From the NCBI GenBank assembly GCA_937879875.1, contig CALFMN010000021.1, forward strand, positions 65,249 through 129,248: 64,000 nucleotides of DNA, read 5' to 3'. Source of the stretch: an uncultured Chloroflexota bacterium. Lineage in GTDB: Bacteria; Chloroflexota; Dehalococcoidia; CAUJGQ01. The translations under genes and the position numbers were made by a program. Below the pieces are notes generated by a model, which did no database searches, was not told the DNA's origin, and saw only the letters and a list, made by a program, of their open reading frames with translations. Below, piece after piece: positions 10,533 through 40,778 of the stretch (position 1 is its first letter; every line of letters starts with the position of its first letter).

Positions 10533-10729
10533 CGATCCGTCCGCTGCCGCGGCGTTGGAGCGCCGCAAGGCCGGGTCTGGTTCAGCTTGTGCGCATGTCC
10601 CGGCACCAAACACTGTGAAATAGTCTCGGGCAGGCGGCAATCACCCGCTATGAACTGGCTCACGCGGCGGCGCCGCTGCGTGATCGCTGACACGCGCCCG
10701 CACCGGCCGACGCGCTACGATGCCCCGTG

Positions 10730-11272
10730 ATGGAATGGCTGCAGGGGAGCGATCGGGGTGACCTGTGCGCCGCCGGCGTCTACGCGCTGGGCGCGGCGCT
10801 GTACTTCGTGCTCGTGCAACTGGCCGGGCTGACCTTTCAGGCGACGCCGCTGATCTTCGGCGGCACGCTGCTTGTGGCGAGCGTCTTCCGGCCGCGCGTG
10901 CTGGCGGCGGCGCTGCTGCTGCTCTGCTGGGGCGTCGCCGTGGCGCTGCTGAACGCCGGAGCCTTGCCTGAGGCGCGCACCGGCGCGGCCTACATGGTCG
11001 CCTTCGGCGTTGCGGCGGCCGTCATGATGCTGCTGCGCCGCTGGATCGCGCCGCCGGTGGCGTTGCAAAGCGCCGCGGCGGTGCTGCTGGCGGGCGGGCT
11101 GGCGCTGTACGGCGCCTTCGACGTGGATGCGCTGGGGCGCGGCTGGTTGTGGACGCTGGTCGTGCTCGCGGACGCGGCGTGCCTGGCGGCAGCCTCCCTG
11201 TATCGGTCGCGGCGACGGCGAACGTCCGTAGCTGCCGGTCCGCAGACGCAGAAGCCCGCGGCAGCTCCGTGA
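10730..11272 (+). CDS. Hypothetical polytopic membrane protein
   Basis: Four or five hydrophobic helices. Basic C-terminal tail. Divergent from the radical-SAM gene. Confidence 0.45.
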   Translation: MEWLQGSDRGDLCAAGVYALGAALYFVLVQLAGLTFQATPLIFGGTLLVASVFRPRVLAAALLLLCWGVAVALLNAGALPEARTGAAYMVAFGVAAAVMMLLRRWIAPPVALQSAAAVLLAGGLALYGAFDVDALGRGWLWTLVVLADAACLAAASLYRSRRRRTSVAAGPQTQKPAAAP

Positions 11273-11304
11273 GAGCGTGCCGCGGGCCGTTGCGGGGCGC
11301 CGTG

Positions 11305-11658
11305 TTACTGTCCGGCCTTGACCAGACCGATCGTGTTACCGTCCGGGTCAGCGAACATCGCGAACGTGACCGTGCCTGGAATCTCGGTGACGGGCGTCAG
11401 CACCTTGCCGCCCATGCCGGACACCTTATCGAGCGTTGCCTGCGGGTCGGCAACTTCGACATAGAAGACCGCCTGTGGCTGGCCGCCCGCCTCGGAGCCG
11501 CCGATGCCCCCGTTGATGCCCTGGCCGCCATTGTCCACCATGCCGTAGTTCATCGGGTTGTTCGCATCGACCTTCCAGCCGAAGAGGGTGGAGTAGAACT
11601 GCTGCGTCTTCGCCGCGTCCTTGCCGATGATCTCGAAGTGTACGACCGGGTTCGCCAT
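11305..11658 (-). CDS. VOC (glyoxalase/bleomycin-resistance/dioxygenase) family protein
   Basis: MANPVVHFEIIG...FGW...FADPDGNTIGLV pattern of a small VOC protein. ATG at 11658. Confidence 0.8.
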   Translation of the reverse strand: MANPVVHFEIIGKDAAKTQQFYSTLFGWKVDANNPMNYGMVDNGGQGINGGIGGSEAGGQPQAVFYVEVADPQATLDKVSGMGGKVLTPVTEIPGTVTFAMFADPDGNTIGLVKAGQ

Positions 11659-11757
11659 CTCAGTGTCTCCTCTTCGCGTTGTGTGCCCCGGCGCCATCCG
11701 CGGGCGCCGGAGGAATACGCACGATGTCGATGGGTGGGCTGACCGCGGCGATCGCCG

Positions 11758-12234
11758 CTAGGCGGGGGCGAGGATATTCGTCAGGTGACCTTTGACGTGG
11801 CCGATCACCAGCATGTCGACGAGCTGGCCGGCGCCGACCGGAGCTTCGCCGAGGGGCGGGAACTGCGCCGTGCGAGCGAGCTGGTCGTCGCTGAAGGCGC
11901 GCAACTGCCCGAGCACGCCGGCTTTGCTGCTGCGCAGCAGATCAAGCGTCTCGGCCTTCGTGCAGTTGGCGAACTGCAGCGCGTGCTGCGCGTTGCCGGC
12001 ATTGATCATCTCGAAGGTAATCGGCGGCAGCGGCTGTGCGGTGGCGATGGCCTGGACCAATTCGAAGGTTGGCTGCACGCTGCTGGCGATGTGGTGCGCG
12101 GTGACGCCCACACTCCAGCTATCCGTTGGGTTCAGCGCGCCCCAGCGCGTGTCCGAACAAGCCGCGATCGCCGCGACCGCCTCGTCGATAGCCGCTTCCA
12201 GTTGACCCGCGAGCGCCTCCGCCTGAGTGCCCAT
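11758..12234 (-). CDS. DinB-like / maleylpyruvate-isomerase N-terminal-domain-like protein
   Basis: 158 aa from ATG at 12234. His-containing motif TAHHIASS and a four-helix-bundle-like composition. Family call is tentative. Confidence 0.5.
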   Translation of the reverse strand: MGTQAEALAGQLEAAIDEAVAAIAACSDTRWGALNPTDSWSVGVTAHHIASSVQPTFELVQAIATAQPLPPITFEMINAGNAQHALQFANCTKAETLDLLRSSKAGVLGQLRAFSDDQLARTAQFPPLGEAPVGAGQLVDMLVIGHVKGHLTNILAPA

Positions 12235-12385
12235 AGCCACGTCTCCTCCTCCGTCCCGCCGGCTGCATCGCCGGGCGAGGCCCACAATTTCACGTCGAAT
12301 CCAAAGCACCAGGACACCGCCGGGCATCTGTCGCTGGCTGACCTCCTTACATGACATGCGCCGCAGGCCGGCACCGCGCGGCGCG

Positions 12386-12850
12386 TTACGTCGATGCTTC
12401 GCCGGCCGCCCAGGGATCGGGGCCGGGATCGGCGCCCGCGGCGGCAAGGGCCAGGCGCGGCAGGTAGTGCTCCCAGCCCACGCTGTGGGCCTCACGCTGC
12501 GCGGCATCGAGGCCGCTGTGGCGCAGCCGCAGCAGCGTGCCGTCGCCGTCCGGCTCGAACGTCACCTCGACCGTGCTCGACCCCGGCGGCACGGCCTGAC
12601 CTTCGCCCTCCCAACCCCAGGTGAAGACGATGCGGCGTGGCGGCTCGACGGCGACGTACTCGCCGCGGGCGACGTCGCCGCCAGTCACGTTGACGCGGTA
12701 GATGCCGCCGGGGCGCGGATCGAGCTCGGCCTCGACGCCTTTCCAGCGGCGCAACTTCTCCGGATCGGTGAAGTAGCTGAAGACAATCTCTGGTCTGGCC
12801 GCGATACGCAACTCGCGTTCAACCGCGGCGTCGATACCGGGCAAGGTCAT
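12386..12850 (-). CDS. SRPBCC family protein (AHSA1/activator-of-Hsp90-ATPase-like)
   Basis: ...EIVFSYFTDPEKLRRW...RIVFTWGWEG...STVEVTFEP.GDGTLLRLRHSG...GWEHYL typical of the AHSA1 domain. Sits beside an ArsR gene, the usual partner. Confidence 0.8.
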   Translation of the reverse strand: MTLPGIDAAVERELRIAARPEIVFSYFTDPEKLRRWKGVEAELDPRPGGIYRVNVTGGDVARGEYVAVEPPRRIVFTWGWEGEGQAVPPGSSTVEVTFEPDGDGTLLRLRHSGLDAAQREAHSVGWEHYLPRLALAAAGADPGPDPWAAGEAST

Positions 12851-25990: not shown

Positions 25991-28807
25991 ATGGCCGAAC
26001 TGCCGACTGGCACGCTCACCTTTCTCTTCACCGACGTGGAGGGCAGCACGCGCCTGTGGGAGCGGCACCCGCAGGCGATGCGCCGGATCATGGCCCGTCA
26101 CGACGCGCTGCTGACCCAATGCTTCGAACAACACAAAGGTGTCGTCGTGCGCCCGCGTGGGGAGGGCGACTCGCTGTTCGCCGTCTTCATGCGGGCGAGC
26201 GATGCCGTCACCGCGGCACTCGAAGGGCAGCGCGTGCTGCTTACAGAGGATTGGGGCGCGATCGGGCCGCTGCGGGTGCGCATGGGCTTGCACACGGGCG
26301 AGGCGGACCTGCGCGCGGGGGACTACTACGGCAGCGCCGTGAATCGCTGCGCCCGCATCCGCGCCGCCGGCCACGGCGGCCAGGTGCTGCTCTCCGAGGC
26401 GACGGCGAAGCTCGTGCGCGAAACGCTGCCGGACGGCGCAACGCTGCTGGACCTCGGCCGGCACCGGCTGCGCGACCTGAGCGAGCCAGAGCAACTGTTC
26501 CAACTCATTGCCGCAGACCTCCCCGGCACGTTTCCACCGCTGAAGACGTTGGAGAGCCGGCCCAACAACCTGCCGCTGCAGCTCACCAGCTTCGTCGGTC
26601 GCGGGCGCGAGCTGGCCGAGCTTGCAAGCCTGCTGAAAACGGCGCGTTTGGTGACGCTCACTGGCCCCGGCGGCACCGGCAAAACGCGGTTGGCGCTGCA
26701 CGTCGCCGCTGGGCTGCTGGACGGCTTCTCCGATGGCGTGTTCTTTGTGGACCTGGCGTCGCTGCAGGATCCGGCGCTCGTGCCCGCGGCGGTCGCCCAG
26801 GCCCTCGGTGTCCAGGGCCTGCCGGAGGTGTCGGCCCGCGAGAGCGTGCTGCGCTTCCTCCGGGACAAACAGGTGCTGCTCGTGCTGGACAACTACGAGC
26901 ACCTGTTGGCAGCGGCTGAATTCGCAGCGGCGCTGCTTCAGGCGGCGCCGGCGGTGCGCCTCCTCGTGACGAGCCGCGCGCCGCTGCGGGTGACCGGCGA
27001 GCGGGAATATGCGGTTGCGCCCTTGCTGGCGCCGCAGGAGCGCGTGCACTCGGCAGCGGAGCTGGCGCAGAATCCGGCAGTGCAACTCTTCGTGCAGCGG
27101 GCACAGGCCGTGCGAGCCGACTTCGCGCTGAGCGATGCAAACGCCTCGACCGTGGCGGCCACCTGCGCACGGCTGGACGGCTTGCCGCTGGCGCTCGAAC
27201 TGGCGGCGGCGCGGATGCGTGCGTTGCCAGTGGCAGCGCTGCTGGCGCGATTGGAGCAGCGCTTGCCGATCTTGACGGGCGGCGCACGGGACGTGCCGGC
27301 GCGCCAGCAGACGTTGCGGGACGCGATCGCCTGGAGCTACGCCCTGCTTGAGCCGGCGGAGCAGCGCTTGTTCCGACGGGTTGGCGTGTTTGCCGGCGGC
27401 TGTACGCTGGCGTTGGCGGAGGCCGTCTGCACCGCCGACGGCGACCTCGGCCTCGACGTGCTGGACGGCGTCGGTTCGCTGGTGGAGAAGAGCCTGCTGC
27501 GCGAAGTCGACGGCCAGGCGGGAGAGCCCCGCTACCGCATGTTGGAGACCATCCGCGAGTTTGCCCTCGGGGAGCTTGAGGCCCATGGCGAAGCGGAGGC
27601 TGTACGGCGGCACCTGGCGGTGCAGGTGTTACAGCTGGTCCGACAGGCCGCCGTGGCGGGTGCCCAGGAGCGCCTGGACGTCGACCTGGATAATGCCCGG
27701 ACCGTGCTGGGGTGGTGCGTCGAACACATGGAGTTGGCGGTGGGGGTGCGATTGTTCTGGGCGTTGCGCTGGTATCTGCACTACCGTGGACTCGGAAAGG
27801 AGCTCAACCTGTGGCGCCAGCGCCTCCTCGCCCTGCCGGACGCCTCGGCGCCGAGCGTTTCTCGGGCGCGGCTGCTTGGAATCACGCTGTTTGACCCGCT
27901 CTCCCTCGCCGAACAGGAGCGCGCGGTGCTTGAGCTCGAGGAAGCCATTGGCCTCAGTCGTGCCCTGGGCGACGCGTCCTGCCTCGCCGATGCGCTCCAA
28001 CACCTTGCGGTGCTGCGGATGAGTCAGGGCCGGTTTGACGCGCTGGTGCCGCCGGCAGAAGAAGCGCTCCCGCTGTATCTCGCAGCGGGAGCGCCACAGG
28101 CCGCTGCCTCTATGCAGCTCTTCCTGGTTCATGCCGCGCTTTCCCGCGGCGATATCGCCACCGCAGAAGCGCTGGTCGCGGCCAATCGGGCGCTCGAGGG
28201 CACGAAACGCTCGTCGCCCGGCCTATCAGCGGAGTCCGCGCTCGCAGAGGCGCACGGCGACCATGGGCGGGCGCGGGTGTTCCTGGAGGAGTCGGCTCGA
28301 GCGGCGGCCGCGTTACAGGGGGAGCAGAGCCCTGACAGACTGGCCCGCCTCGCCATGCTCGTGCAGGTCACCCTGCGCCAAGGGGACACGCGGGGCGCGG
28401 TGGCACGCTGCACCGAGAGTCTCGCCGTGGAACGCCGTGTGGGGCCCTCGCGCTTTCTGGCGGCGGTCTTGACGGTGCTCGCCCAGGCGGCGGAGCGCTG
28501 TGGCCGGCTGCCCGCCAGCGCACGGCTGTTGGCCGCCGTCGACGGGCAACGGCGAACGTTCGCCGTGGAGGTGCCGGGCGTGCAGGAGGCGCAGCAGGCG
28601 GCGGTGGCGCGGGTGCGGGTCGCGCTGGGCGAGGCGGCGTTCGCCGAAGCGTGGGCGGTGGGCGAGGCGCTTGCTCCGGAGGAAGCCATCGAGCTTGGCC
28701 TGGCTGTTGCCGGGGAGCTGGCGGCCGGCCCAGCGGCCCTCATCCTCACCCCCGTCCCCTCTCCTTCTCCCAATCCTGGAGAGAAGGAAAGGGGCGATCC
28801 GGCGTGA
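25991..28807 (+). CDS. Signal-transduction protein: class III adenylate/guanylate cyclase domain + STAND (NB-ARC/AAA) NTPase + TPR-like repeats
   Basis: N-terminus LTFLFTDVEGSTRLWE...GDS.FAVF...R.G.HTGE (CHD cyclase). Walker A GPGGTGKTRLAL. hhhhDN Walker B (LLVLDNYEH). Helical repeat C-terminus. The last about 20 codons are encoded by a family-2 repeat. Confidence 0.85.
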   Translation: MAELPTGTLTFLFTDVEGSTRLWERHPQAMRRIMARHDALLTQCFEQHKGVVVRPRGEGDSLFAVFMRASDAVTAALEGQRVLLTEDWGAIGPLRVRMGLHTGEADLRAGDYYGSAVNRCARIRAAGHGGQVLLSEATAKLVRETLPDGATLLDLGRHRLRDLSEPEQLFQLIAADLPGTFPPLKTLESRPNNLPLQLTSFVGRGRELAELASLLKTARLVTLTGPGGTGKTRLALHVAAGLLDGFSDGVFFVDLASLQDPALVPAAVAQALGVQGLPEVSARESVLRFLRDKQVLLVLDNYEHLLAAAEFAAALLQAAPAVRLLVTSRAPLRVTGEREYAVAPLLAPQERVHSAAELAQNPAVQLFVQRAQAVRADFALSDANASTVAATCARLDGLPLALELAAARMRALPVAALLARLEQRLPILTGGARDVPARQQTLRDAIAWSYALLEPAEQRLFRRVGVFAGGCTLALAEAVCTADGDLGLDVLDGVGSLVEKSLLREVDGQAGEPRYRMLETIREFALGELEAHGEAEAVRRHLAVQVLQLVRQAAVAGAQERLDVDLDNARTVLGWCVEHMELAVGVRLFWALRWYLHYRGLGKELNLWRQRLLALPDASAPSVSRARLLGITLFDPLSLAEQERAVLELEEAIGLSRALGDASCLADALQHLAVLRMSQGRFDALVPPAEEALPLYLAAGAPQAAASMQLFLVHAALSRGDIATAEALVAANRALEGTKRSSPGLSAESALAEAHGDHGRARVFLEESARAAAALQGEQSPDRLARLAMLVQVTLRQGDTRGAVARCTESLAVERRVGPSRFLAAVLTVLAQAAERCGRLPASARLLAAVDGQRRTFAVEVPGVQEAQQAAVARVRVALGEAAFAEAWAVGEALAPEEAIELGLAVAGELAAGPAALILTPVPSPSPNPGEKERGDPA
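28742..28805. repeat. Family-2 repeat, solo hairpin arm (cccgtcccctctccttctcccaatcctggagagaaggaaaggggcgatcc)
   Basis: Overlaps the 3' end of CDS 25991..28807. Confidence 0.6.
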
Positions 28808-28974
28808 AGCGTTCCGGAGGGCGTCGGGCCAGCAATCGCCTGTAGGGGCGCACGGCGTGCGCCCTTCGCGGCCAAAGCCGCGCCCAACGGCGCGCCGGAT
28901 AACCCGGTGCTCTTGTGGATCGCCGCAACGCCAACCATCTCCATCAACCTGCTAACCCGGCGCCCTTTCGGATC

Positions 28975-29040
28975 GCTTCATGCCGGATCGCCCCTTTCCC
29001 TCCAGAATTGGGGGAAAGGGGACGGGGGATGGAGGGCCAG
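28975..29040. repeat. Family-2 repeat, solo arm in opposite orientation (gatcgcccctttccctccagaattgggggaaaggggacgggggatggagggcc)
   Basis: Lies upstream of the 29083 start. With 28742-28805 it brackets about 170 bp. Confidence 0.6.
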
Positions 29041-29082: not shown

Positions 29083-30690
29083 ATGACGACGCTGCACACC
29101 ACCAGCCGCACGCTACCGCGGTTCACGTTGCAGGACGGCGAGGGCCGCGAGCGCCGCTTCCCCAGCGGCCGCCATGCCCTGCTCTGCTTCGTGAAAGAGG
29201 ACTGTCCCACCTGCCGTCTCTCGATGCCGCTGGTCGAGGCGGCGCACCGCGCCTTCGGCGAGGCGCTCGACATCTGGGCGATCGGCCAGGACGAAGCGGG
29301 CAACGCGAAGCTGGTGGACGAGTTCGGCCTCAGCGTCCCCATGCTGGACGACACGGCGCTGAAGGTTTCGTACGCCTACGACCTCGACACCGTGCCCACG
29401 GTGATCCTTGCGGACGGCAGCGGCGCCGAACAGCGGCACTTCGTCGGCTTCGATAAGGCCGACTGGCTGGATCTGGTGCGCGCGCTGGCGCGGCTGGCGG
29501 GCGGCGCGGCGCCGGCGGTCGATTGGGCGTCCTATCCCGAGTCGCGGCCGGGCTGCGGCTCGAAGTCGGTCGAGCCGGGCATCGCCGAGCGGCTGGCGGC
29601 GGAGGCCGAGGGCAGCCCGCTGCGGGCGCGGCGCATCGAGGTCGGCGAGGGCGACGACGTTTTCGAGTTCATGTTCGACCAGGGGCTGACGGACGGCCTG
29701 CCCGTGGTGCCGCCCACACCGGAGCGGGTGCTGCGTATGCTGCACGGCACACGGCGCGATCCGCAGGAGGTTGTAGCCGTGGTGCCGCCGAACATGGCGC
29801 CGGCCACGGTCGAGAAGGTCGCGGCCAACGCGGTGCTGGCCGGCTGCAAGCCCGCGTACCTGCCTGTCGTGATCGCCGCGCTTGAGGCCGTCTGCACCGA
29901 TACATTCAACATCCACGGCGTGAACGCCACGACCTGGGCAGCCAGCCCGGTGATCGTCGTCAACGGCCCGATCCGCGACCGCATCGGCATGAACTACGGG
30001 CTGATGGCGCTGGGCTACGGCAACCGCGCCAACGCCACGATCGGCCGCGCGCTGAAGCTGTGCATCCGCAACCTCGGCGGCGCCAGGCCGGGCGGCGTCG
30101 AACGCTCGGTGCTCGGCTCGCCGGGCAAATACACGATGTGCTTCGCCGAGCACGAGGCGCGCAGCCCCTGGCAGCCGCTGCACGTGGAGCGCGGCTTCCG
30201 CCCGGAACAGAGCGTGGTCACCGTCTTCGGCCTCGAAGTCTCGCCCCGCCACATCGCCGACCAGACCTCGCGCACGGCGCGGCAGCTCGGCGGCAGCCTC
30301 GGCCTGGGCCTTGAGGCGTGCTGGCTGCCGAAGGCGCACGGCCAGGGCGATGTGCTGCTCGTCGTCTGCCCCGAACACGTTGATACGCTCTGGCGCGACC
30401 GCTGGACCAAAGCGCAACTGCGCGAGCGCATTCAGGAGATCACGTCGCGGCCCGTGCGCGAGCTGCTGGCGGACGACGAAAGCGGCGAAGGCATTCCCCG
30501 CTCACGCTTCGGTCCGGGTGGTCCGAGCGAGGAGGAGCTAAACCGGCGCATTCCCAAGTTCCGCTCGCCGGAGAACATCCACATCGTCGTGGCCGGCGGC
30601 GAGGGCGGCAAGTTCTCCTCGGTTTTCGCCGGCTGGGTCAGCGGCCCGACAGGTTCGTCCTCCGTCAGCCGCGTGATCGAAGAGGTGTGA
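29083..30690 (+). CDS. Fusion protein: N-terminal thioredoxin-fold (redoxin/AhpC-TSA-like, CPTC active site) + about 400-aa uncharacterised C-terminal domain
   Basis: AGGAGC RBS 7 nt before ATG 29083. ...ALLCFVKEDCPTCRLSMP...DIWAIGQDE...VPTVILADG typical of a TlpA/ResA-like Trx fold. The C-terminal domain (HGVNATTWAASPVIVVNGP...GNRANATIGRALKLC) was not recognised. Confidence 0.7.
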   Translation: MTTLHTTSRTLPRFTLQDGEGRERRFPSGRHALLCFVKEDCPTCRLSMPLVEAAHRAFGEALDIWAIGQDEAGNAKLVDEFGLSVPMLDDTALKVSYAYDLDTVPTVILADGSGAEQRHFVGFDKADWLDLVRALARLAGGAAPAVDWASYPESRPGCGSKSVEPGIAERLAAEAEGSPLRARRIEVGEGDDVFEFMFDQGLTDGLPVVPPTPERVLRMLHGTRRDPQEVVAVVPPNMAPATVEKVAANAVLAGCKPAYLPVVIAALEAVCTDTFNIHGVNATTWAASPVIVVNGPIRDRIGMNYGLMALGYGNRANATIGRALKLCIRNLGGARPGGVERSVLGSPGKYTMCFAEHEARSPWQPLHVERGFRPEQSVVTVFGLEVSPRHIADQTSRTARQLGGSLGLGLEACWLPKAHGQGDVLLVVCPEHVDTLWRDRWTKAQLRERIQEITSRPVRELLADDESGEGIPRSRFGPGGPSEEELNRRIPKFRSPENIHIVVAGGEGGKFSSVFAGWVSGPTGSSSVSRVIEEV

Positions 30691-30702
30691 GTGCGGCCGG
30701 CG

Positions 30703-30880
30703 CGCTCGGCCCTCTATCCCCCTACCCCTTTCCCCCAATCCTGGAGGGAAAGGGGCGATCCTGGGTTGGAGCGATCCGATACTGGGCAGGGTTAACCGTG
30801 CCGGCCACGGAACGCCCGACCCAAGATCGCCCCTCGCCCAGGATTGGGAGAGGGGAAGGGGGTGAGGGCCGACGCCCGCG
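30703..30880. repeat. Family-2 palindromic repeat, full copy
   Basis: ggccctctatccccctacccctttcccccaatcctggagggaaaggggcgatcc ...core... gatcgcccctcgcccaggattgggagaggggaagggggtgagggcc. Confidence 0.8.
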
Positions 30881-30962
30881 CACGCCCCAGCATTTCGCCG
30901 TACACTAAGGCCGGTCCGCGCATAGTCGTGCGCCGGGCGCCAGCAGCCAGCGGGAGGATAGG

Positions 30963-31481
30963 ATGACGACCCTCATCGACCCCACGGACGAACGTGTGCC
31001 CATTCGCCGGCAGCTCACGCGCCGGCCGGAGGCGATCACCGGCACGGTCGCGTTGCTGGACATCAGCAAGCCGCGCGGCGACGTGCTGATCGCGGAGCTG
31101 GAGGCGCGCCTTGCCGAGCGGCTGCCCGCGGTCACAATCAAGCGCTACAAGAAGCCAACCTTCACCAAGCCGGCGCCCGACGAACTGCGCCGCGAGATCG
31201 CGCAGGAGGCGGACTTCGTCATCGAAGCCCTTGCCGATTGAGGGTCATGCACGACGTGCAGTGTGCACGACACGGTGTGGTTCGAAATCCAGGGCAAGCC
31301 GAGCGTCTTCGTCGCCTCCAACGTCTTCGTCACCGCCGCCGAGGCACAGTCCGCCGCGCTGGGGCTGCCGGACGTGCGGCGCATCTTCGTCCCGCACCCG
31401 ATCCAGGACGCGGCCGACGACGAAATGCGTGCGAAAGCCGACGCGATCGTGGACGAGGTCATCGCCGCGCTGGTGGACTGA
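30963..31481 (+). CDS. UGSC-family selenoprotein (in-frame TGA at 31239-31241 read as selenocysteine)
   Basis: GGAGG RBS before ATG 30963. ORFs 30963..31241 and 31263..31481 are in the same frame. Read-through gives ...FVIEALAD-U-GSC-TTCSVHDTVWFEIQGK..., matching the eponymous U-G-S-C motif. Small palindromes (cgtgca/tgcacg) lie 10-30 nt downstream of the UGA. Confidence 0.75.
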
Positions 31482-31498
31482 AGGCGGGCCGCCGGCCC

Positions 31499-31576
31499 TC
31501 ATCGTCTCCTTCCTCCTTCCTCCAATCCGCCGGAAGGAGACGATCATGCACCGTGCGTTCCGAGCACCCGACGGTT
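31499..31576 (+). promoter_or_regulatory. 13-bp perfect stem-loop sequestering an AAGGAGA-N6-ATG, followed by a 10-codon mini-ORF (MHRAFRAPDG*)
   Basis: Left arm atcgtctccttcc (31501-31513) pairs with right arm ggaaggagacgat (31532-31544). The right arm contains a Shine-Dalgarno sequence and ATG 31546. Lies 17 nt after the selenoprotein stop. Confidence 0.4.
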
Positions 31577-32026
31577 AACCCGGCTCGGTCCGAGTGGTGC
31601 TCCCCACGATCGCTCCGTGCCCGTGGTCTAATATTACCGTGACCGTTTAGTATCACGGGCAGCGCGGCGGCGGATCTGGCCTCGGCGGGCGATCGCCTGG
31701 TGCCGGCGGCGCCAACGCGACCACGCGATCACGGTGCTGGGCGGATGCCCGGCGGCGAAGCGGTTCAGCAGCCGGCGGAGTTCCGCGACACGGAGCGGCA
31801 CGCGGTCGTCGCCTGGGCCCCCTGTTTGCCCGGGCGGTTTCGACGGCCCGGCGCGCCGGCGTCATCTGCCGGTGCCAGCCCCGCCAGGCGCGTCCCTCGG
31901 CCTGATCGAGCCCGACCTGCCCCTGCGCCAGCGTCAAGCAGTCCGCGCTGCGCGTGCGCGGGCCGGCCACGCGCACGATGGCGGTCAGCCCCCTCTCGTC
32001 GGGGGCGTAGACGAGCGAGGAGGTAG

Positions 32027-33090
32027 TCACGGCGCGATTGCGGGATAGAGATGCTGCAAGCGAATGCGGGCAGCGGCGGTGGTGAAGCGCCAGCGGATGG
32101 CGGTGGTGCCGGCGTTGCGCTCGGCCTCCCAGGCGGCGACCTCAGCGGTGAGCGTGTCGGCATCGGCGATGCGCCGGTCCAGGCACTGGCGGCTGAGGAT
32201 GCTGCACTCAATCTCGGCCATGTTCAGCCACGACCCGTGCGGCGGCGTGTGATGCAGCTCCAGCTTATCCAGCAGGCGCGTGGCCTCGGCCGGTGGGAAG
32301 GCCTGGTACAGCGCCGCCCCACTATGCGTGTTCAGGTTGTCCAGCACCAGCACGAGGCGCTCGGCCTCGGGGTAGTGGACCTCGACCAGGTCTTTGATGA
32401 CGTGGGCGCAGTCGACCGCCGTGCGCCGCGCGGTGACCGTCACGTGCCGCCAACCGGCAAGCGGCTCACAGACCACAAAGAGGTTGGCCACGCCGTTGCG
32501 CACGTCCTCATCGTCCTCGCGGGCGGGCTGGCCCGGCTGGACCGGGCGTGGGGGCTGGACCGCGCCCACCAGGTGCTTGCTGGTCTCGTCCAGACAGACC
32601 TGCGGACGCCGGGGATCCTGGGGCCGGTGATAGACATCCAGCACGTCCTCCAGCTGGCAGACCAAGGCGGCACTGCCCTGCGGCGGCAGGCACCAGCGCG
32701 TGTCTGCCAGGGCTTCAGCACGTTGTTTTGCGCGTGCGCCGTACGGTTTCGTACGCGATCGCCTCGACGAGGTTGAGTTCGACCAGGCGCTGGGCGACCA
32801 GGCGCAAGGTCCAGCCCCTCCTCCACGAAGCGGCGGCGCACGCGCTCGACGGTGTCGCTGCTCACACCGGCGGTGGCGGCGATCGCGGCGTCGAAGCGGC
32901 CGGACTGCCCGGGCGGCGCATCGGCCAGCAGCAGGATGCGGGCGTGCTGGAGCGTGCGGGCGGCATGCGTGCCGCTGTGCAGGAACTGCTGCAGATGCTC
33001 CCGCTCAGCAGAGGTGAGGGTGACACGATAGCGTTTCGTTCGCATGCGCCCAGCATGCCAGCGCCTTACCATAACGGGCAAGGCGGCCGT
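32027..33090 (-). mobile_element. IS630-family insertion sequence (copy 1); transposase broken into N-terminal HTH and C-terminal DDE ORFs by frameshifts
   Basis: N-terminus MRTKRYRVTLTSAEREHLQQF...VSSDTVERVRRRFVEEGLD (IS630 HTH). C-terminus ...DETSKHL...LVLVLDNLNTHS...HHTPPHGSWLNMAEIECSIL...LYP (DDE domain, ORF 32027..32665). At least two frame changes in between. Confidence 0.75.
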
Positions 33091-33094
33091 GATG

Positions 33095-34200
33095 GGGTAC
33101 TAAGCAGGTAGCCCTCGTTATGGTACGTTCGCGGCATGCGCCGCACGACGTTGAGCGACGAGGCACGGGCCGCGCTCCAGGCGGCCCGCCACGACTCTGG
33201 CTGGAGTCCGCGGGAGCGCGACCGGGTGGCGATGGTGCTGCTGTCGGCGGCGGGCTGGTCGCCACCGCGCATCGCCGGGCACTTCGGCTGTTCGGTGCAG
33301 CCAGTGCGTACGGCGCTCGACCAGTACGCGGCCAGCGGCCTGGACGGGTTGCGCCACCGGCGGCCCGGCCCGCCGCCCAACGCCGCGCGACGCACGCAGG
33401 TGACGGCAGCGTTGACGGCGCTGCTGGAGCAAGACCGTAGCTGGACGGCGGCGCAGCTGGCAGCCGCGCTCGACGAGCAGGACATCCGGCTCAGCACGCG
33501 CCAGACGCGCACGTAGCTGGGCGGGATCGCCGCCTGGCGGCGCACCGTGCGCACCCTGGCGCACAACCAGGCCCCGGTCAAGGTCGCCCGGGCCGAGCGG
33601 CACCTTGGGGTGCTGCAAAAACAGGGGGCGCCGGCCGGGCCACGCTCTGCGATCGCGACGGTTGTGGCGTCAGCCCCAGCCAGCCGGTGAATTACCGTTG
33701 GACGCTGGTCGGGCAGCGCAAAGCCGTGCCCGACGAGAACCCCTGTGGGCGGCGCCTGCACGTGCTGGCGGCGCTGGTGTGCGACGGTCCCCATCCCAGC
33801 CTGACCTGGGACATGCAGCCACGCACGCTGCGGGCCAGCGACCTGCGCGCCTTCCTGCCCGGCATCCCCCGCCAGCCGGACACGCCGCTGGTCGTGGTGC
33901 TGGACAACGCCGGCAGGCAGCGCCGCAAGGCCGGGCAAGCAGCCGTGCCCGCGCTGTGGCGCCAGGGGCATCTATCTCTACTACCTGCCGCCCTCCAGTC
34001 CGCAGCTCAACGCGCTTGCGCGCGTCTTCGGCGTGATCAAGCCGTACGACCTACCCGAACGACGCTATGCCACCGATACCGCCCTGGAGGAGGCACTCGA
34101 TGCCGCCTTTACCCGCTACGAAACCCGACTCCTCGCGAAAACGACCCCACAACCGGGGCTAGCTGCTTAGGCTGTAAACTGGACGAGGGGCTTTCGGCCC
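33095..34200 (+). mobile_element. IS630-family insertion sequence (copy 2, distinct member), transposase interrupted by in-frame TAG (33514) and TGA (33690) plus frameshift
   Basis: MRRTTLSDEARAALQ...GWSPPRIAGHFGCSVQPVRTALDQYAASGLDGL (HTH). Later ...LVVVLDNAGRQRRK... and, in another frame, ...YLYYLPPSSPQLNALARVFGVIK...TRYE. Head-to-head with copy 1. Confidence 0.7.
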
Positions 34201-34226
34201 CATTATCCGAACCGATCCTCAAAAGA

Positions 34227-34349
34227 TGACTACAGTGCCTGGCGTCTTTGCTGCCGGCGACATCACGCGTTCCGCCCACAATGCGACCTGGGCAAGCGCC
34301 GATGGCGTCACTGCCGGCATGGCCCTGCACCGCTCGCTGGTCTTCTGAT
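34227..34349 (+). pseudogene. C-terminal 40-aa fragment of an FAD-dependent pyridine nucleotide-disulfide oxidoreductase (thioredoxin-reductase-like)
   Basis: MTTVPGVFAAGDITRSAHNATWASADGVTAGMALHRSLVF* is the canonical C-terminal GD-FAD motif. No N-terminal part remains; it is directly flanked by IS630 copy 2. Confidence 0.5.
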
Positions 34350-34700
34350 CAGTACCCCACCCAATTGCGGGATTCCCATCAACCGGTGGAAGGCGCCGGC
34401 CGAGGATTGGCTGCGCGACCTCTACGAGAAGCGCCAGCGCAAGGCGGCGCGGACCTCGCGCGGGCGATCGCCGCCTTCGGCAATAGCGGCGGCACGCCGC
34501 TGCTCGGGACCGGCGACGATGGAGCGGTTCCCGGCCTGTAGTATGCCCAGCCAACTCACATCACGCGCCCTGAGAGCCCTGCACGCGCGCCCGACACGCG
34601 AACGCGCGCTGTTGAAGCCGTCGCACTTGGAGTATTGTGACCTCGAAGCAGCCGCGCGTCGGCGGCGGTGCGATGCCGGTTCACGAGAGAGGTGAGGCAG

Positions 34701-35843
34701 ATGGCGCAGATCTACTACTCCTGCGATTCGCATGTGGTGGAGGCGGCCGAGGTCTACGACGGCCTCGTGGACCGCTTCGGCGATCGGGCGCCGCGCATCG
34801 TCGACGGCGTCAACGGCCGCGAGGGCGTCTATCTCTACTGGCCGAAGCTCAACCGGCCGATCCTCGTTGGCCGCCTGGGCATCGCCGGCAGCCGCCTCGA
34901 CAACCCGGAAACGCACGAGCGCATGAAGCACGGCTGGGACAACCTCAATCCCGGCGTCAAAGACCCGGTGGCGCGGCTCAAGGAGCAGCAGGTCGATGGC
35001 ATCGTGGGCGAGGTGATGTACCCGAGCCTGAACATGTTCACCTTCGCCGTGCCCGATCGCGAGGTCGCGCAGGCGGTGATGCAGCGCCACAACGACTGGA
35101 TCCGCGACTACTGCTCGCACGCGCCGGAACGGCTGATCGGCGTCGCCTGCCTGCCGCTGCCGGACGTGGACGAGGCGATCGCCGAGCTGTACCGCTGTGC
35201 GAAGATGGGCATCCGCGGCGTCGCCATCCCCTGCACGGCCCCCGTCGCCAAACCGTACAAAGATCCGGCCTACGAGCCGTTCTGGGCGGCGGCGGAAGAG
35301 GTCGGCCTGCCGATCACGATGCACATCTTCTGCGGCGCCGAGTGGGGCATGAGTCTGCCCGACTACTGGGATCCAATCGTCAGCTATACGCTCTCCCATG
35401 CCGGCATCTGGAATACGGTCAGCAACCTGATCACCTCCGGCGTCGCCGAACGGCATCCGAAGCTGCGCTTCATCTGCGCCGAGTGGGAGACGGGCTGGCT
35501 GGGGCACGTGCTCAAGCGCTTCGACCACGCGATCTACCGCAGCCGCGCCGACGCCTCGCCCGACCTGCAGATGCACGGCAGCGAGTACTTCAAGCGACAG
35601 TTCTTCGCCACGTTTGAAGACGACGACATCGGCGTGGAGACGCGCCACTCGATCGGCGTGGACCGGCTGCTGTGGGGCAACGACTATCCGCACCACGACT
35701 CGATCTGGCCGCGCTCGCAGGAGATCCTGCGCGAGATCATGGCCGGCGTGCCGGACGACGAGCGCGACGCGATGGTCTGGAAGAACGTGCAGCAGCTCTA
35801 CGCGATCGACGAGTCGAAGCTGCCGGTGGGCGCGGCGGTGTAG
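34701..35843 (+). CDS. Amidohydrolase-2 family metal-dependent hydrolase/decarboxylase (ACMSD-like)
   Basis: MAQIYYSCDSHVVE N-terminal metal-binding HxH-like start. ...WGNDYPHHDSIWP... C-terminal Asp/His motif. RBS GAGGTGAGG before ATG 34701. Confidence 0.85.
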   Translation: MAQIYYSCDSHVVEAAEVYDGLVDRFGDRAPRIVDGVNGREGVYLYWPKLNRPILVGRLGIAGSRLDNPETHERMKHGWDNLNPGVKDPVARLKEQQVDGIVGEVMYPSLNMFTFAVPDREVAQAVMQRHNDWIRDYCSHAPERLIGVACLPLPDVDEAIAELYRCAKMGIRGVAIPCTAPVAKPYKDPAYEPFWAAAEEVGLPITMHIFCGAEWGMSLPDYWDPIVSYTLSHAGIWNTVSNLITSGVAERHPKLRFICAEWETGWLGHVLKRFDHAIYRSRADASPDLQMHGSEYFKRQFFATFEDDDIGVETRHSIGVDRLLWGNDYPHHDSIWPRSQEILREIMAGVPDDERDAMVWKNVQQLYAIDESKLPVGAAV

Positions 35844-35879
35844 TCGGCCCTGGTATTGGAAGCCTCCGGCGGTTGCGCT

Positions 35880-35935
35880 GTGCTCTGGCCCCGACCCCTC
35901 CCTCTCCCAATCCTGGAGAGAGGGAGGGGAGCTTG
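35880..35935. repeat. Family-2 repeat, solo hairpin (cccctccctctcccaatcctggagagagggagggg)
   Basis: Perfect hairpin of the family-2 type. Confidence 0.6.
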
Positions 35936-36241
35936 AACGCTGGTGGGATGGAGGCTGGGGCGGAGTGCGGAGGCCGCTCGCGGGCGCACCACTGTGTGCC
36001 CCTACGATCTGCGAACCAGTCACGCCGCCAGGTGCAACGCCCCGCACTTCGACAAATGTCCGGCTGAGACTACCGAGAATAGCTTGTCCGTCCCGACCCC
36101 CTTCGAATCCGGCACCAACTTGCTCGCTCCAGGCGCTCACGCGCGGCCTGCCTGCTTTACGATGGCCCAGACGGCGTCGTTGCCTGACTGAGGTACGACT
36201 GCGCCGAGCTTCCCCTGAAGGAGACGGCCACGAGGACGTCA

Positions 36242-37057
36242 GATGCGAGCAGTCCGATAAAGACGGAATATGCGCTTGACAATGCCTGGCAGGGGGCACG
36301 TGAGCGCCTCCGGCTGCTGGAGGAGACCCAGGATCCGGGCACTCTCCGCCACCTGGACGCGCTGGGCGTAGCGAGTGGCTGGCGCTGTCTTGAGGTGGGT
36401 GGCGGCGGTGGCTCGATTGCGACCTGGCTCTGCCAGCGGGTTGGGCCGACTGGCCGGGTGGTGGCGACCGATATCGACACACGCTTCCTTGAGGCGCTGG
36501 ATTTCTCCAACCTTGAGGTCCGCCAACAGAACATTGTCACCGACGCCGTCGAGGAGGCCGGCTTCGACCTCGTCCACGCCCGCGCCGTGCTCATGCACCT
36601 CCCGGAGCGGCAGCGCGCGCTGGATCGGCTGGTGGCGGCCCTGAAGCCAGGGGGCTGGTTGCTCCTTGAGGAGGGTGAATATATTTCGCACGCGCTGCCT
36701 GACCCACGGATTGATGCGGCGGCGGGCGAACTGCTGGCGAAGCACAAGCGCGCGCTGGATATCGGCGGGGCGACGAGCGGCATCGACTTTTACTACGGGC
36801 GGCGGCTCTTCGGGGACCTGCTTGCCCGGGGCATCGCCGACATCGGGTCAGAAGGTCGGCTGGAGATGGTGCGCGGCGGCAGTACTCCAGCGAAGTTTTT
36901 GCAGCGTACTGGGCAGCAGACGCGACAGCAGCCTCAAGCGAGTGCACACATGTCTGAAACTGAGCGCGACGCGTTTCTCACTCTGCTCGATGACCCTGCC
37001 TTGCTCTATCTGGGTCCTATCTTGATGGCCGTGTGGGGTCGGAAACCACTCGGGTAG
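36242..37057 (+). CDS. Class I SAM-dependent methyltransferase lacking a canonical start codon (possible pseudogene/5' truncation)
   Basis: Frame open from stop at 36190. Conserved N-terminal region ...ERLRLLEETQDP...GWRCLEVGGGGGSIATWL...VVATDID... lies upstream of the first ATG/GTG/TTG (GTG 36395, inside SAM motif I). Confidence 0.55.
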   Translation, partial: DASSPIKTEYALDNAWQGARERLRLLEETQDPGTLRHLDALGVASGWRCLEVGGGGGSIATWLCQRVGPTGRVVATDIDTRFLEALDFSNLEVRQQNIVTDAVEEAGFDLVHARAVLMHLPERQRALDRLVAALKPGGWLLLEEGEYISHALPDPRIDAAAGELLAKHKRALDIGGATSGIDFYYGRRLFGDLLARGIADIGSEGRLEMVRGGSTPAKFLQRTGQQTRQQPQASAHMSETERDAFLTLLDDPALLYLGPILMAVWGRKPLG

Positions 37058-37230
37058 GCGAGGAACGGTGCTCGCTCTCTGCAAGCGGCGCCGGCCGAGG
37101 GTCTTCGCCCCGTGGTCCTCTGCGGCCAATTCCTCTGCACCGCGGACCGCGCATACTGTTGCCCGTGAGCGGCGTCTTTTGGCCGCCGCCGGTCACGCGA
37201 GCTGTCCGAATGTGTAAAGCATCCTGGCTC

Positions 37231-37377
37231 TCCCGCGATTTTGGTGACGATGGTTCGAGGGGCGATCTCGTCGAACGGCACGCCGAACCTGTCGTGCAGG
37301 ACGAAGGTCACCCGCTCAGCTGGAGTCAGCGCGTCCGGTACGAGCAGCAGGGCCAGGCCCACTGCGTCGGAGACCAC
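37231..37377 (-). pseudogene. Fragment resembling sigma-70 family region 4 (ECF-type) without regions 2/3
   Basis: [31 protein letters not shown] fits the region-4.2 HTH pattern (L.ER.VF.L....G.SY.EIA). Upstream space is occupied by an opposite-strand gene. Weak call. Confidence 0.3.
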
Positions 37378-37459
37378 GGCTTCGTGCTCGGGATTTGCTT
37401 CGTCGGCGGGTTGCAGGAGCGTGATCCGTCATAATACTGTCGAACCACAACCGGTCCCT

Positions 37460-37951
37460 GTGACCGCCGGAGGAGCACAGAGATGCCAGCAGGCAACAAG
37501 AGCACCAGCGCGAGCGGCGGAGAAGTCCCAGGGCTTCACGGACGCGGAACGAGCCGCGATCAGGGCGCGCGCCCAGGAGCAGCAGGCGGACGCGCGCCGC
37601 GGCCGGCGCGCGGACAAGGCGGACGGGGAAAGCGCCGTGCTGGCGGCGATCGCCGCGATGACGGGACCGGATCGCGCCATGGGCGAGCGGCTCCATGCGA
37701 TCATCACCGCCAGCGCGCCAGCCCTCTCACCGAAAACCTGGTACGGGATGCCCGCGTATGCCAGGGACGGCAAGGTCGTCTGCTTCTTCCAAAGCGCGCA
37801 GAAGTTCAACACGAGGTACGCGACGTTCGGCTTCAACGACACGGCGCACCTCGACGAAGGCGCCATGTGGCCCGTCGCCTTCGCGCTGCAGGAGTTGACT
37901 GCCGCCGCCGAGGCACGGATCGCCGCGCTCGTGACGCAAGCGGTGGGCTGA
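37460..37951 (+). CDS. DUF1801/YdhG-like domain protein, probably frameshifted near the 5' end
   Basis: Body ...[15 protein letters not shown]...[23 protein letters not shown]....[52 protein letters not shown] is typical. The best N-terminus ([15 protein letters not shown] 37483) is in the +1 frame relative to the body. Confidence 0.5.
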
Positions 37952-38029
37952 GGGCGCGCCGTCTGGCCTGGTTTGACGGTCATGACGGACCGAAACCTCG
38001 CCACGAGCTGCCGGGGCTTCCGCGAACCT

Positions 38030-39805
38030 GGTGAAGGCGAGCCGGTGACGCTAGCGACGTGATGCCAACCACGATCGACGCCGCTGACCTCCTACCCACT
38101 GGCTCGTAGTTCCGTGTCGAGGCGCTGAGCCGCACGGCGGACGCGAGCACCCTGCCCCTCACCAGTCCCCAACCGACCGCGGCCTGCCTGCGGTGCCGCG
38201 CGCCCTCGGCCGCCGTCCATAGTCGCTACCAACGCACGCTCGCCGACCTGCTCTGGGTCCGCCTACCCGTACGCCTCGACCTCCACGTCCGCAAGTTCTT
38301 CTGCCGCGTCTCCACCTGTACGCGGCAGATCTTCACCGAGCGGCTCCCCACGCTCGTTGCCCCCTCTGCGCGGCGCACGCTGGGCCTGACCGCAGCGCTC
38401 TGGCTGGTGGCGCTGGCCCCTGGTGGCGCAGCGGGCGCCCGGGTCGTCGCCGGGTTGGTGATGGGCACGAGCCCTGACACCTTGCTGCGGCTCATTCAGA
38501 CCGCGCCAATCAGCAACCGCGAGCCGACCCGCGTGCTGGGCATCGATGATTGGTCCTGGCGCCGCGGCCTGCGCTTCGGGACGATCCTCGTCGACCTCGA
38601 ACGGCATTGCCCGGTGGACCTCCTGCCCGATCGTGCGGTCGAGCCCATCGTGGCATGGCTGAAGGCGCATCCCGGTATTGAAGTCATCAGCCGCGACCGC
38701 GCCCAGTGCTACGCCGAGGCGGCCAGGCAAGGGGCACCGGATGCCGTGCAGGTCGCCGACCGCTGGCATCTCCTCAAGAATCTGGCGGAGGCGCTGGAGC
38801 GCTGCCTGCTGCGCGCTGCCAGCAGCCGGAAAGTGGCCGCCCAGCACACCGCCGACCGCGACCCGCCGCTCCAGAGTTACCCGGACGCGGACTGCGTCCC
38901 CTGGGAACAGCGGGCCGAGGAGGCCAGCCAGGCGAAGCACCAGGCAGCCGTGGAGCGCTATCAGCGCATCCGCAGCCTGCATGCCGCCGGGGCCGACATC
39001 GCCGACATCGCCCGCACCGTCGGCGTCTCCCGCGTCACGGTGTATCGCTATCTCCGGCTCACGGCGCTTCCTGAACGAAAACATTCCCGCTGCCGGCGGC
39101 CAGTGCTGGACCCCTACAAGGACTACCTGCTGCGCCGCTGGGAGGAGGGCTGCCACGTCAAACTCACCCTCTTCCGCGAAATTCAGGCGCAGGGCTATGC
39201 CTTCTCGGCGACGAACGTCTTCCGCTTCCTCAACCGGACGGCGCGAGCGCGGAGCCGCGACCCGGTCCAGGTCGTCCCACCCCCGGCCAGCGCCGTGCCC
39301 ACGGCGCGCCAGGTCGCCGGACTGTTCGTCGCCCGGCCCGAGCGGCTGGCGAAGGACGACCGGGCCTCTCTCACGCGCTTGACGGCTGGGGAGCCGAGCC
39401 TGGCAATGGCGTATGCCCTCACCCAGGCGTTCGGCCGCATGCTGCGCGAGCGTCAGGGCGAGCAGCTCGATGACTGGCTCACGCAGGCGAAAGCGAGCGG
39501 GGTGAAGGAGCTGGCCGCCTATGCCTGCGGCCTGGAAGCGGACGAGGCGGCGGTCACGGCGGGGCTGACGCTCGCCTGGAGCAACGGCCAGACCGAGGGC
39601 CACGTCCATCGCCTGAAGTTGCTCAAGCGCCAGAGCTACGGTCGCGCCGGCTTCGATCTCCTGCGCCGGCGCGTCCTGCTCGCTGCGTGAGCGATCAGCG
39701 CAGGCGCGACGCGGTTGACCGTTGCCTGCTCACCGCGATTCACCAAAAGACCGGAAGACCCAGCATCATTTGGCGAGGTGTGCAACGCCGCTCGCTCTTC
39801 GCCCT
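38030..39805 (+). mobile_element. ISL3-family insertion sequence; transposase 38062..39690 carries an in-frame TAG at codon 16 (38107-38109)
   Basis: MPTTIDAADLLPTGS*FRVEAL...PTAACLRCRAPSAAVHSRYQRTLADL (zinc-finger N-terminus) ...LGIDDWSWRRGLRFGTILVDLERHCPVDLLPDR...W.NGQTEGHVHRLKLLKRQSYGRAGFDLLRRRVL (ISL3 C-terminus). Imperfect terminal IRs GGTGAAGGCGAGCCGG (38030) / CCGCTCGCTCTTCGCC (39788). Confidence 0.75.
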
Positions 39806-39812
39806 CTATTCC

Positions 39813-40778
39813 CTAACCCCTATTCCCTGCATTGAGCACGCGCTGCGGCGTGCCGGCGATGAACGCCTCGATGTTTTCCAGCGTTTGGCCGTAGAAGACG
39901 CGGTACGTGTCGGCGGTGACGTAGCCGAGGTGCGGCGTCAGCACGACGTTCGGCAGCGAACGCAAGGGGTGGTCGAGCGGCAGCGGCTCCTGGTCGAACA
40001 CGTCGAGGCCGGCGCCGGCGAAGGCGCCTGCCTGCAGCGCCGCGATCAGCGCGGCCTCGTCCACGATCGGGCCGCGCGAGGTGTTGACGAGATAGGCGGA
40101 CGGCCGCAGCAGCGCCAGTTCGCGCGCGCCGAGCAGGCCGGTGCTGCGCGGGCTGAGCACGAGATGGATCGTAACGATGTCGCTCTGCGCCAGCAGCTCG
40201 TCCTTGCTCGCGCGCTCGGCGCCGCAGGCCCGCGCCCGTTCGTCGGTCAGGTTCTGGCTCCAGACGAGCAGACGCATGTGAAAGGCCCGCGCCACTTCCG
40301 CCACCTGCCCGCCGATGTTGCCCAGGCCGATGATGCCCAGCGTCTTGCCGTCGAGGCCGAAGCCGACCGTCTCCTGCCAGCCGCCGCCCCGCACCGAGCG
40401 GTCTTCACGCGGAATGCTGCGCACCAGCGCCAGGATCAGCCCCCAGGTCAGCTCCATCGTGGAGCGGCTGCCACCGCCCGTGCCGCAGACGAGCACACCG
40501 CGCTCAGTTGCGGCCTCCAAGTCGATCGCGGCGTTGCGCATGCCGGCGGTGCACAGCAGCTTAAGGTTGGGCAGCCGCTGCAAGAGCGAGCGGCGGAAGG
40601 GCGTGCGCTCGCGCAGCGCCATCACCACGTCGAAGGGCTGCAGCCGCTCGGCCAGCGCCGCCTCGTCCGTCAGATGATCGTGAAACGCCTCGACCCTGAC
40701 CTTGCCTTCGAGGCGCCGCCAATCCGCGGAGCCGAGCGCTGCATCCTGGTAGTCGTCGAGCAAAGCGACCCGCAGCAT
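39813..40778 (-). CDS. D-isomer-specific 2-hydroxyacid dehydrogenase (NAD-binding)
   Basis: GKTLGIIGLGNIGGQVA Rossmann motif. Catalytic R...E...H region (LVNTSRG..VD, TPHLGYVT). ATG at 40778. Confidence 0.85.
   Translation of the reverse strand: MLRVALLDDYQDAALGSADWRRLEGKVRVEAFHDHLTDEAALAERLQPFDVVMALRERTPFRRSLLQRLPNLKLLCTAGMRNAAIDLEAATERGVLVCGTGGGSRSTMELTWGLILALVRSIPREDRSVRGGGWQETVGFGLDGKTLGIIGLGNIGGQVAEVARAFHMRLLVWSQNLTDERARACGAERASKDELLAQSDIVTIHLVLSPRSTGLLGARELALLRPSAYLVNTSRGPIVDEAALIAALQAGAFAGAGLDVFDQEPLPLDHPLRSLPNVVLTPHLGYVTADTYRVFYGQTLENIEAFIAGTPQRVLNAGNRG

Follow-up and report, generated by a model that had tools for sequence, protein, structure and literature searches.

The stretch analysed here, 64,000 nucleotides from a contig of an uncultured Chloroflexota bacterium of the Dehalococcoidia (hereafter the window; G+C content about 70%), carries on its forward strand two neighbouring genes that are the subject of this study: gene 1, which encodes a thioredoxin (Trx)-fold domain fused to a large domain called X below (the fusion being Trx-X), and a gene for a selenoprotein of the UGSC family. 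They are followed by a cluster of insertion sequence (IS) remains and by the 3' end of a gene resembling that of a thioredoxin reductase (TrxR) (Table 1). The initial annotation of the locus had combined these elements into a lost operon of three genes, encoding a Trx-fold fusion protein, a UGSC selenoprotein and a flavoprotein disulfide reductase knocked out by transposition. The comparative data presented below uphold the link between the first two genes, which in the window form an unremarkable example of a bicistronic module that is found widely, and detach the third, the TrxR-like remnant being unrelated to the Trx-X/UGSC module.

Table 1. Features of the locus (positions in the window; for the parts of gene 1, residues of its product)
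Feature	Position	Strand	Basis or remark
Gene 1, Trx-X fusion, 535 aa	29083..30690	+	Pfam/NCBIfam domain matches
Gene 1, TlpA/ResA-like Trx-fold domain; CPTC is C41/C44	residues 1 to ~139		
Gene 1, linker with conserved RPGCGSKS motif	between Trx domain and domain X		
Gene 1, domain X; conserved C255 and C353	about residues 190-535		
Long palindromic interspersed-repeat element in gene 1-UGSC spacer	30715..30870		inverted repeats, further copies
UGSC-family selenoprotein, 172 residues, selenocysteine 93	30963..31484	+	PF24696, NF041046
Apical hairpin CGUGCA-GUG-UGCACG, candidate bacterial SECIS	31255..31269	+	14 nt past UGA
Inverted repeat, 14-nt arms, just past UGSC stop	31500..31545		sequence reading
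IS701-family transposase, C-terminal remnant	31634..32030	-	NF033540, E 3.1e-9, model positions 299-350 of 363
IS630 copy 1, transposase in two overlapping open reading frames	~32024..33102	-	DDE_3, HTH, NF033545
IS630 copy 2, degenerate, several frameshifts	~33101..34170	+	HTH_23/HTH_32, weak DDE_3, NF033545
3' remnant of TrxR-like flavoprotein gene, ~60 codons, one frameshift	34170..34348	+	TIGR01292

The N-terminal part of the gene 1 product matches AhpC/TSA in Pfam over residues 10-125 (E 1.2e-6, 28.9 bits against a cutoff of 26) and Redoxin as well, whereas the NCBIfam model of ResA is matched only weakly (34.5 bits, well under the cutoff of 170). With a thioredoxin fold and a CxxC at the N-terminus of helix 1, the domain resembles the TlpA/ResA type; the extracytoplasmic location and the above-cutoff score with the family hidden Markov model (HMM) that go with that type are missing from gene 1. 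The protein is presumably cytoplasmic, because neither a signal peptide nor a hydrophobic segment is visible at its N-terminus (MTTLHTTSRTLPRF). It thus departs from TlpA, ResA and DsbE (CcmG) both in having no signal peptide or membrane anchor and in being fused to a 390-residue domain. Residues ~140-535 found no match at all in Pfam or NCBIfam, even at E <=10, and the description of gene 1 in the initial annotation, a CPTC Trx fold joined to an unrecognised domain of roughly 400 residues, is in this respect confirmed.

Relatives of the second gene were gathered in a genome scan that took one genome per species and in which at least 599 species genomes carry UGSC; the neighbourhood counts given below refer to the best 80 of these at least 599 species-level genomes, and 86 loci were fetched with 10-kb flanks. 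Is this gene, with an in-frame TGA at 31239-31241, indeed a single gene? If the UGA were a real stop, there would be no selenoprotein, only two small separate open reading frames (ORFs; 30963-31241 and 31263-31481), and such a view could appeal to the database entries for UGSC, most of which are 94-residue N-terminal halves from gene callers that halted at the UGA, as well as to the fact that neither tRNA-Sec nor sel genes occur within the 64-kb window. Yet a single HMM covers both halves, the whole protein scoring 162.6 bits with PF24696 (E 1.3e-47; cutoff 25) and 162.3 bits with NF041046 (cutoff 125), and the homologues with cysteine in place of selenocysteine (Sec) are continuous, uninterrupted proteins. 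Moreover, all 86 related loci, without exception, use TGA as the Sec codon, within conserved flanks (ALAD-U-GSCTTCS[VL]HD; in the window ALAD-U-GSCTTCSVHD). Shortly past the UGA comes a stem-loop, as expected of a bacterial selenocysteine insertion sequence (SECIS), and this candidate hairpin, with the consensus CGUGCA-GUK-UGCAYG in relatives, is frozen at its synonymous sites among 76 distinct sequences. All six of its pairs are retained in 22 of 22 sampled sequences; at one of them G-C has given way to A-U, a compensatory change, in two sequences and to G-U in another three. The single-sequence folding energy of the hairpin is unexceptional (z -0.2). Taken together, these features make a true stop at this codon exceedingly improbable.

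The window gene is accordingly a full, above-cutoff member of a known family, with Sec at the family motif and no difference from that family in the gene itself. This is the 'UGSC-containing protein' of Zhang and Gladyshev, a family abundant in aquatic metagenomes (PMC2398784, PMC1976440) and counted from 2007-2008 onward among the major selenoprotein families of prokaryotes without an assigned function (PMC1976440, PMC2398784, PMC13188914); the 'UGSC/Unknown_1' fusion noted in 2008 (PMC2398784) is probably a fusion of UGSC with domain X. The searchable literature gives neither a function nor a partner gene for UGSC. Relatives were absent from a scan of viral contigs, and phmmer and profile searches of the sequences in the Protein Data Bank (PDB) gave no significant match. 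An iron-sulfur reading of the motif as CxxCxxC was considered and set aside: in proteins in which UGSC precedes X in the same chain (U-X fusions; X-U in the reverse order) the third cysteine is a tryptophan, and one fusion has a single cysteine.

A Trx-X gene lies upstream of UGSC on the same strand in 71 of the 80 loci, and the gap between the two genes, where it could be measured, is at most 10 bp in 29 and at most 200 bp in 61 of 67 loci. The carriers include Dehalococcoidia (Tepidiformaceae), Binatia, Pseudomonadales (Azotimanducaceae), Alphaproteobacteria (Hyphomonas), Myxococcota and Acidobacteriota. When every ORF of these loci was clustered all against all, the only widely conserved families were UGSC itself (80 loci) and gene 1 (71 loci). 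The families that came next, acyl-CoA dehydrogenase (26 loci), short-chain dehydrogenase (22), family III CoA-transferase (16) and major facilitator superfamily (MFS) transporter (15), are each restricted to particular lineages. The survey of UGSC neighbourhoods that had been proposed along with the three-gene model thus finds the Trx-X fusion conserved and no TrxR- or AhpF-like partner beside it. The module of the window is 70-93% identical to hundreds of others and so is not novel as an instance.

Some loci extend this arrangement. Five Dehalococcoidia genomes carry one or two further paralogues consisting of X only directly after UGSC, in the order Trx-X, UGSC, X[, X] (loci L068, L071, L079, L083 and L084; about 10512-12790). 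Upstream of gene 1 in the window (25991-28807) stands a gene for a 938-residue STAND-type protein that combines an adenylate/guanylate cyclase domain, an NB-ARC/AAA NTPase and TPR repeats, and in the closest relative two STAND paralogues flank the module, one on each side (L002, 1-2456 and 6697-9208). As a possible member of the module this regulator was discarded, being common only to the window and that relative and not standing next to the module across the 80 genomes.

What, then, is domain X, which in gene 1 measures about 350-390 residues? An exhaustive HMMER search with residues 140-535 of gene 1 recovered a family of 5,435 clusters at 50% identity. Among the best 150 representatives of the 5,435 clusters, sorted by architecture, 27 are Trx-X and one is Trx-Trx-X, 17 are UGSC-X and six X-UGSC, five are X-X tandems, nine carry more than 60 unassigned residues N-terminal to X, and the remaining 85 consist of X alone. 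A Pfam census of the 59 X representatives of at least 400 residues found a UGSC domain in the same chain in 25, in either order, AhpC/TSA in nine, Redoxin in six, Thioredoxin_8 in two and FeThRed_B, the catalytic chain of ferredoxin:thioredoxin reductase, in one; a non-redox fusion partner did not occur in this census. It is this pattern that provides the strongest evidence for a functional unit, because the modules attached to X are exclusively of the thiol/selenol redox kind, with UGSC the commonest of them. The continuous U-X fusions bear the motif CGSCTSW..HD, in which cysteine replaces Sec, and the X-U proteins stop where Sec would stand. Together with the synteny, the fusions bear out the linkage of Trx fusion and UGSC that the initial annotation had suspected from a single locus.

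Within X, 94% of the domains have C255 and 90% have C353, and the most conserved positions are DGLP..PT, AGC255, TT, GP, G.G.RAN, GR322, N330, C353, E356 and W363. Two conserved cysteines in the company of several invariant polar residues would sooner be expected in an enzyme than in a scaffold. Neither phmmer nor profile searches of the PDB sequences returned a significant match to X.

Why did the three-gene model seem attractive, and what remains of it? It supposes that an ancestral operon comprised the Trx fusion, UGSC and a dedicated NAD(P)H-dependent flavoprotein disulfide reductase, the last of which was destroyed by IS630. The fragment is indeed TrxR-like, lies on the same strand about 2.7 kb downstream of UGSC and abuts the end of an IS630 element; furthermore, a redox relay needs an electron donor, and one member of the X family (P0142) is fused to a domain resembling the beta chain of ferredoxin:thioredoxin reductase (E 2.2e-21). 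None of the 86 UGSC loci with their 10-kb flanks, however, contains a match to the fragment at E <=1e-3, and no cluster of flavoprotein reductases appears among the conserved neighbours of UGSC. Of the synteny that the model predicted, the adjacency of Trx-X and UGSC is therefore conserved and the reductase is not.

The same conclusion follows from the closest relative, a Dehalococcoidia metagenome-assembled genome (MAG; GCA_035310145.1) that is 91% identical on gene 1. Its gene order is STAND regulator, gene 1, UGSC and then convergent enoyl-CoA hydratase and PHP genes, and similarity to the window ceases at about 31509, 25 bp past the UGSC stop (blastn, L002 against the window). On the other side of the IS cluster, the amidohydrolase locus of the relative (94% identity) has different DNA upstream, with similarity starting at 34604, and the fragment was not found upstream of that amidohydrolase even at E 10. 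An intact reductase, for which the initial annotation had proposed to look in related strains, is hence present at neither junction, the UGSC side or the amidohydrolase side. In the window itself the interval between the UGSC inverted repeat and the IS701 remnant, some 125 bp, is too short for the upstream portion of a reductase gene, whose 250 or so missing codons are not at this locus, and the remnant recurs elsewhere in unrelated genomic contexts. The hypothesis of a three-gene operon with an IS-destroyed reductase is largely refuted by these observations and is rejected here as very unlikely.

The IS701 remnant is truncated by IS630 copy 1, whose transposase is recognised by DDE_3 (E 4.6e-23) and helix-turn-helix (HTH) domains in Pfam and by NF033545 (118 bits) and whose ends were read by eye. 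Copy 2, with the terminal repeats TAAGCAGGTAGCCC... and ...GGGGCTAGCTGCTTA, lies head to head with it. The two show what defines the IS630 family, namely a DDE_3 transposase, an HTH domain, inverted repeats and a TA target, the repeats and TA junctions again by eye. The initial annotation had placed the TrxR-like fragment between two IS630 elements: both are real, but both lie upstream of it, and downstream there is only a tentative scrap. The IS cluster replaced whatever originally followed UGSC. The IS701 remnant and the two IS630 copies form a nested IS graveyard that starts where synteny with the closest relative ends. The possible third IS630-like scrap lies past the stop codon of the remnant on the minus strand (34349 to ~34560); the evidence for it is weak and consists of the end motifs AGTACCCCA and ATTGCGGGAT, which are common to it, of RWRFS compared with RWRFT, and of a 20-nt match (90%) at the equivalent offset. 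Farther along, past the amidohydrolase gene, the window is longer than the 94%-identical relative (L087/L088) by about 3.8 kb (~35988-39829); according to the gene calls on an identical contig (L101), this additional DNA contains a methyltransferase and an ISL3-family transposase (~38461-39690). An exact look-up of the amidohydrolase of the window gave no record.

The TrxR-like remnant deserves attention in its own right. The 40-codon C-terminal fragment of the initial annotation is real, though its coordinates were one base off (the intact ORF is 34226..34348) and homology to related remnants begins earlier, at 34170, with the frameshift in between. The 40-residue ORF product matches TIGR01292, the model of the thioredoxin reductases of low relative molecular mass (low-Mr), at positions 263-299 of 300 (E 1.1e-5, 24.4 bits against a cutoff of 343), where the alignment covers the final FAD motif (GD) and the helix at the C-terminus. 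Compared with a low-Mr TrxR, it comprises the last 40-60 codons only and lacks the N-terminal NAD(P)H/FAD motifs as well as the CxxC centre; it thus falls short of the full length of about 310 residues, the two dinucleotide-binding motifs, the CxxC and the cutoff score by which such enzymes are recognised. All 20 of 20 database relatives of the 40-residue peptide are themselves ORFs of 37-68 residues. Those whose surroundings were analysed follow a Wzy_C gene (L102, 4970-5123), lie between DUF4260 and a MalT/GerE regulator (L103, 4992-5174), adjoin a B3_4-domain gene (L105, 416-544) or, in a Herpetosiphonaceae MAG (GCA_035645135.1), come directly after a different IS630 (L106, 1132-1313; L107; L108).

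At the last of these the junction is identical to that in the window, TA/GGCTGTRAA (the slash marks the boundary; window 34168-34170, L106 ~1130, L107 ~246, L108 ~694), and since two different IS630 elements end at the same TrxR-like junction, a preferred IS630 target is suggested. CTAG is the target preferred by IS630, and the intact codon pair CTA-GGC would create it. Six remnant copies differ by 12-24% of their nucleotides and, leaving aside the near-identical pair L106/L108, have dN/dS values of 0.06-0.22 at dS 0.46-1.24; their 5' truncation points differ and ATG is kept in all. The remnants may have arisen when a conserved TrxR-like gene was truncated recently and independently several times, or they may represent a genuinely conserved mini-ORF. 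Over 31766-36000 the window is matched at 99.95% identity by a contig of JGI sample 3300022557 (Ga0212123_10002806), which breaks off inside IS630 copy 1 and stems from the same organism.

How might the conserved pair work? We consider it probable that Trx-X and UGSC constitute a bicistronic redox module in which X is the catalytic component and of which the TrxR-like piece is not a lost member. The module likely serves as a thiol/selenol redox relay for a catalytic X domain. X would then be the substrate-handling catalytic unit, whose reaction would oxidise its cysteine pair or leave an adduct between a cysteine and the substrate; the Sec-x-x-Cys centre of UGSC (motif U-x-x-C-x-x-C) would resolve or reduce the oxidised X; and the fused TlpA-like domain would in turn re-reduce the selenenylsulfide of UGSC, with reducing power drawn from the general Trx/TrxR system or from some other donor encoded elsewhere. 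In other lineages, UGSC(Cys) or a ferredoxin:thioredoxin-reductase-like domain might take the same N-terminal position on X. Three elements of this picture are inferred: which way the electrons flow, that X is catalytic and that the gene 1 product is cytoplasmic.

Several observations weigh against this proposal. UGSC has no X homologue within 10 kb in nine of the 80 loci, which makes the adjacency of the pair frequent but not obligatory, and in these nine loci the lone UGSC gene adjoins SecA, ABC or Trx-TPR genes. Conversely, the members of the X family mostly stand alone. In the window, a palindromic repeat of 156 bp between the two genes might uncouple their expression: the inserted element has lengthened the spacer to 272 bp, where the closest relative has 52 bp and most genomes have about 0-60 bp. 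Other copies of this G+C-rich repeat occur in the window at ~7779-7907, 28737-29027 and 35898-35917; in some frames such palindromic repeats translate as ...SPSPNPGEKERG....

It is also conceivable that the two proteins are linked in another way, X being a scaffold, a chaperone or a factor for maturation or for selenium or sulfur trafficking, or UGSC being the catalyst (a peroxidase, for instance, or a protein-disulfide reductase) and X its substrate or a regulator of it. Synteny and fusions would fit such roles equally well, X displays no recognisable active-site fold, and a small NifU-like CxxC ORF precedes or overlaps the start of one UGSC(Cys)-X fusion gene (L110, 3876-4136); domains of the NifU kind take part in the trafficking of clusters or sulfur. 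However, X is very highly conserved (67-92% across phyla), numerous polar positions in it are invariant (R, N, E, H, D), and genes of its family are found amid those for transporters and catabolic enzymes; all three points suit an enzyme better, and on these grounds an enzymatic role of X is favoured and the alternatives are judged rather unlikely.

The neighbouring genes weakly hint at a substrate from organic-acid or acyl-CoA catabolism. Nine gammaproteobacterial loci have a divergent acyl-CoA dehydrogenase gene (L032, L035, L037, L042, L051, L070, L076, L078, L085), and in eight loci with this gammaproteobacterial type of neighbourhood an MFS transporter gene lies downstream; eight other gammaproteobacterial loci combine an RraA-like gene upstream with a convergent CoA-transferase gene (L040, L047, L049, L056, L061, L064, L069, L072). 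A divergent acyl-CoA dehydrogenase gene also adjoins an unrelated UGSC(Cys)-X fusion (L109), within a cluster resembling those of side-chain beta-oxidation, and ABC transporter and MmgE/PrpD genes adjoin other X genes. Acyl-CoA dehydrogenase was considered as a third partner and dismissed, being lineage-restricted and having abundant paralogues in such genomes; it is kept as a hint only.

Two known systems offer points of comparison for the proposed relay. In the Trx-MsrA-MsrB fusions of the Neisseria PilB type a TlpA-like domain recycles the fused reductase domains; the entry 2jzr, which turned up in the searches, presumably belongs beside these proteins. Gene 1 resembles them in having a TlpA-like Trx domain ahead of a thiol-dependent domain that it would re-reduce, whereas X is unrelated to MsrA and MsrB and the module has an additional, separate selenoprotein partner. 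Glycine and D-proline reductases pair a small selenoprotein (e.g. GrdA) with substrate-specific subunits and are re-reduced by the thioredoxin system. Here the analogy is conceptual only, extending to a small Sec/Cys carrier, a larger substrate-specific protein and electrons of the Trx type: no relationship of sequence or fold to the module was detected, and the carriers of the module belong to aerobic heterotroph lineages, not to Stickland fermenters.

For the window itself the outcome is deflationary, in that it contains a standard copy of the module and the supposed IS-destroyed reductase lies outside it; the lead on UGSC comes from comparative data on the whole family and not from anything special in this stretch. 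The literature that could be searched documents neither the near-constant Trx-X partner nor the range of fusions counted here, nor that X lacks a solved relative. An almost fixed operon partner gives the orphan UGSC family a concrete complex to express and assay, and cultivable carriers such as Hyphomonas are open to genetics. Fusions of that partner with UGSC occur in either order, its other fusions are all with thiol-redox modules, and it represents a very large family, with thousands of clusters, that has neither a Pfam model nor a solved structure. Could X be the missing catalytic partner of UGSC and, with its built-in Trx-fold module (in other lineages one of the UGSC or ferredoxin:thioredoxin-reductase type), define a new class of selenium-dependent reductase, of a fold without a solved relative and active perhaps in organic-acid or acyl-CoA catabolism of aerobic heterotrophs? 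We offer this as a tentative possibility, more doubtful than the module as such. If true, it would provide a partner for UGSC, which is among the most abundant orphan selenoprotein families of aquatic and soil metagenomes.

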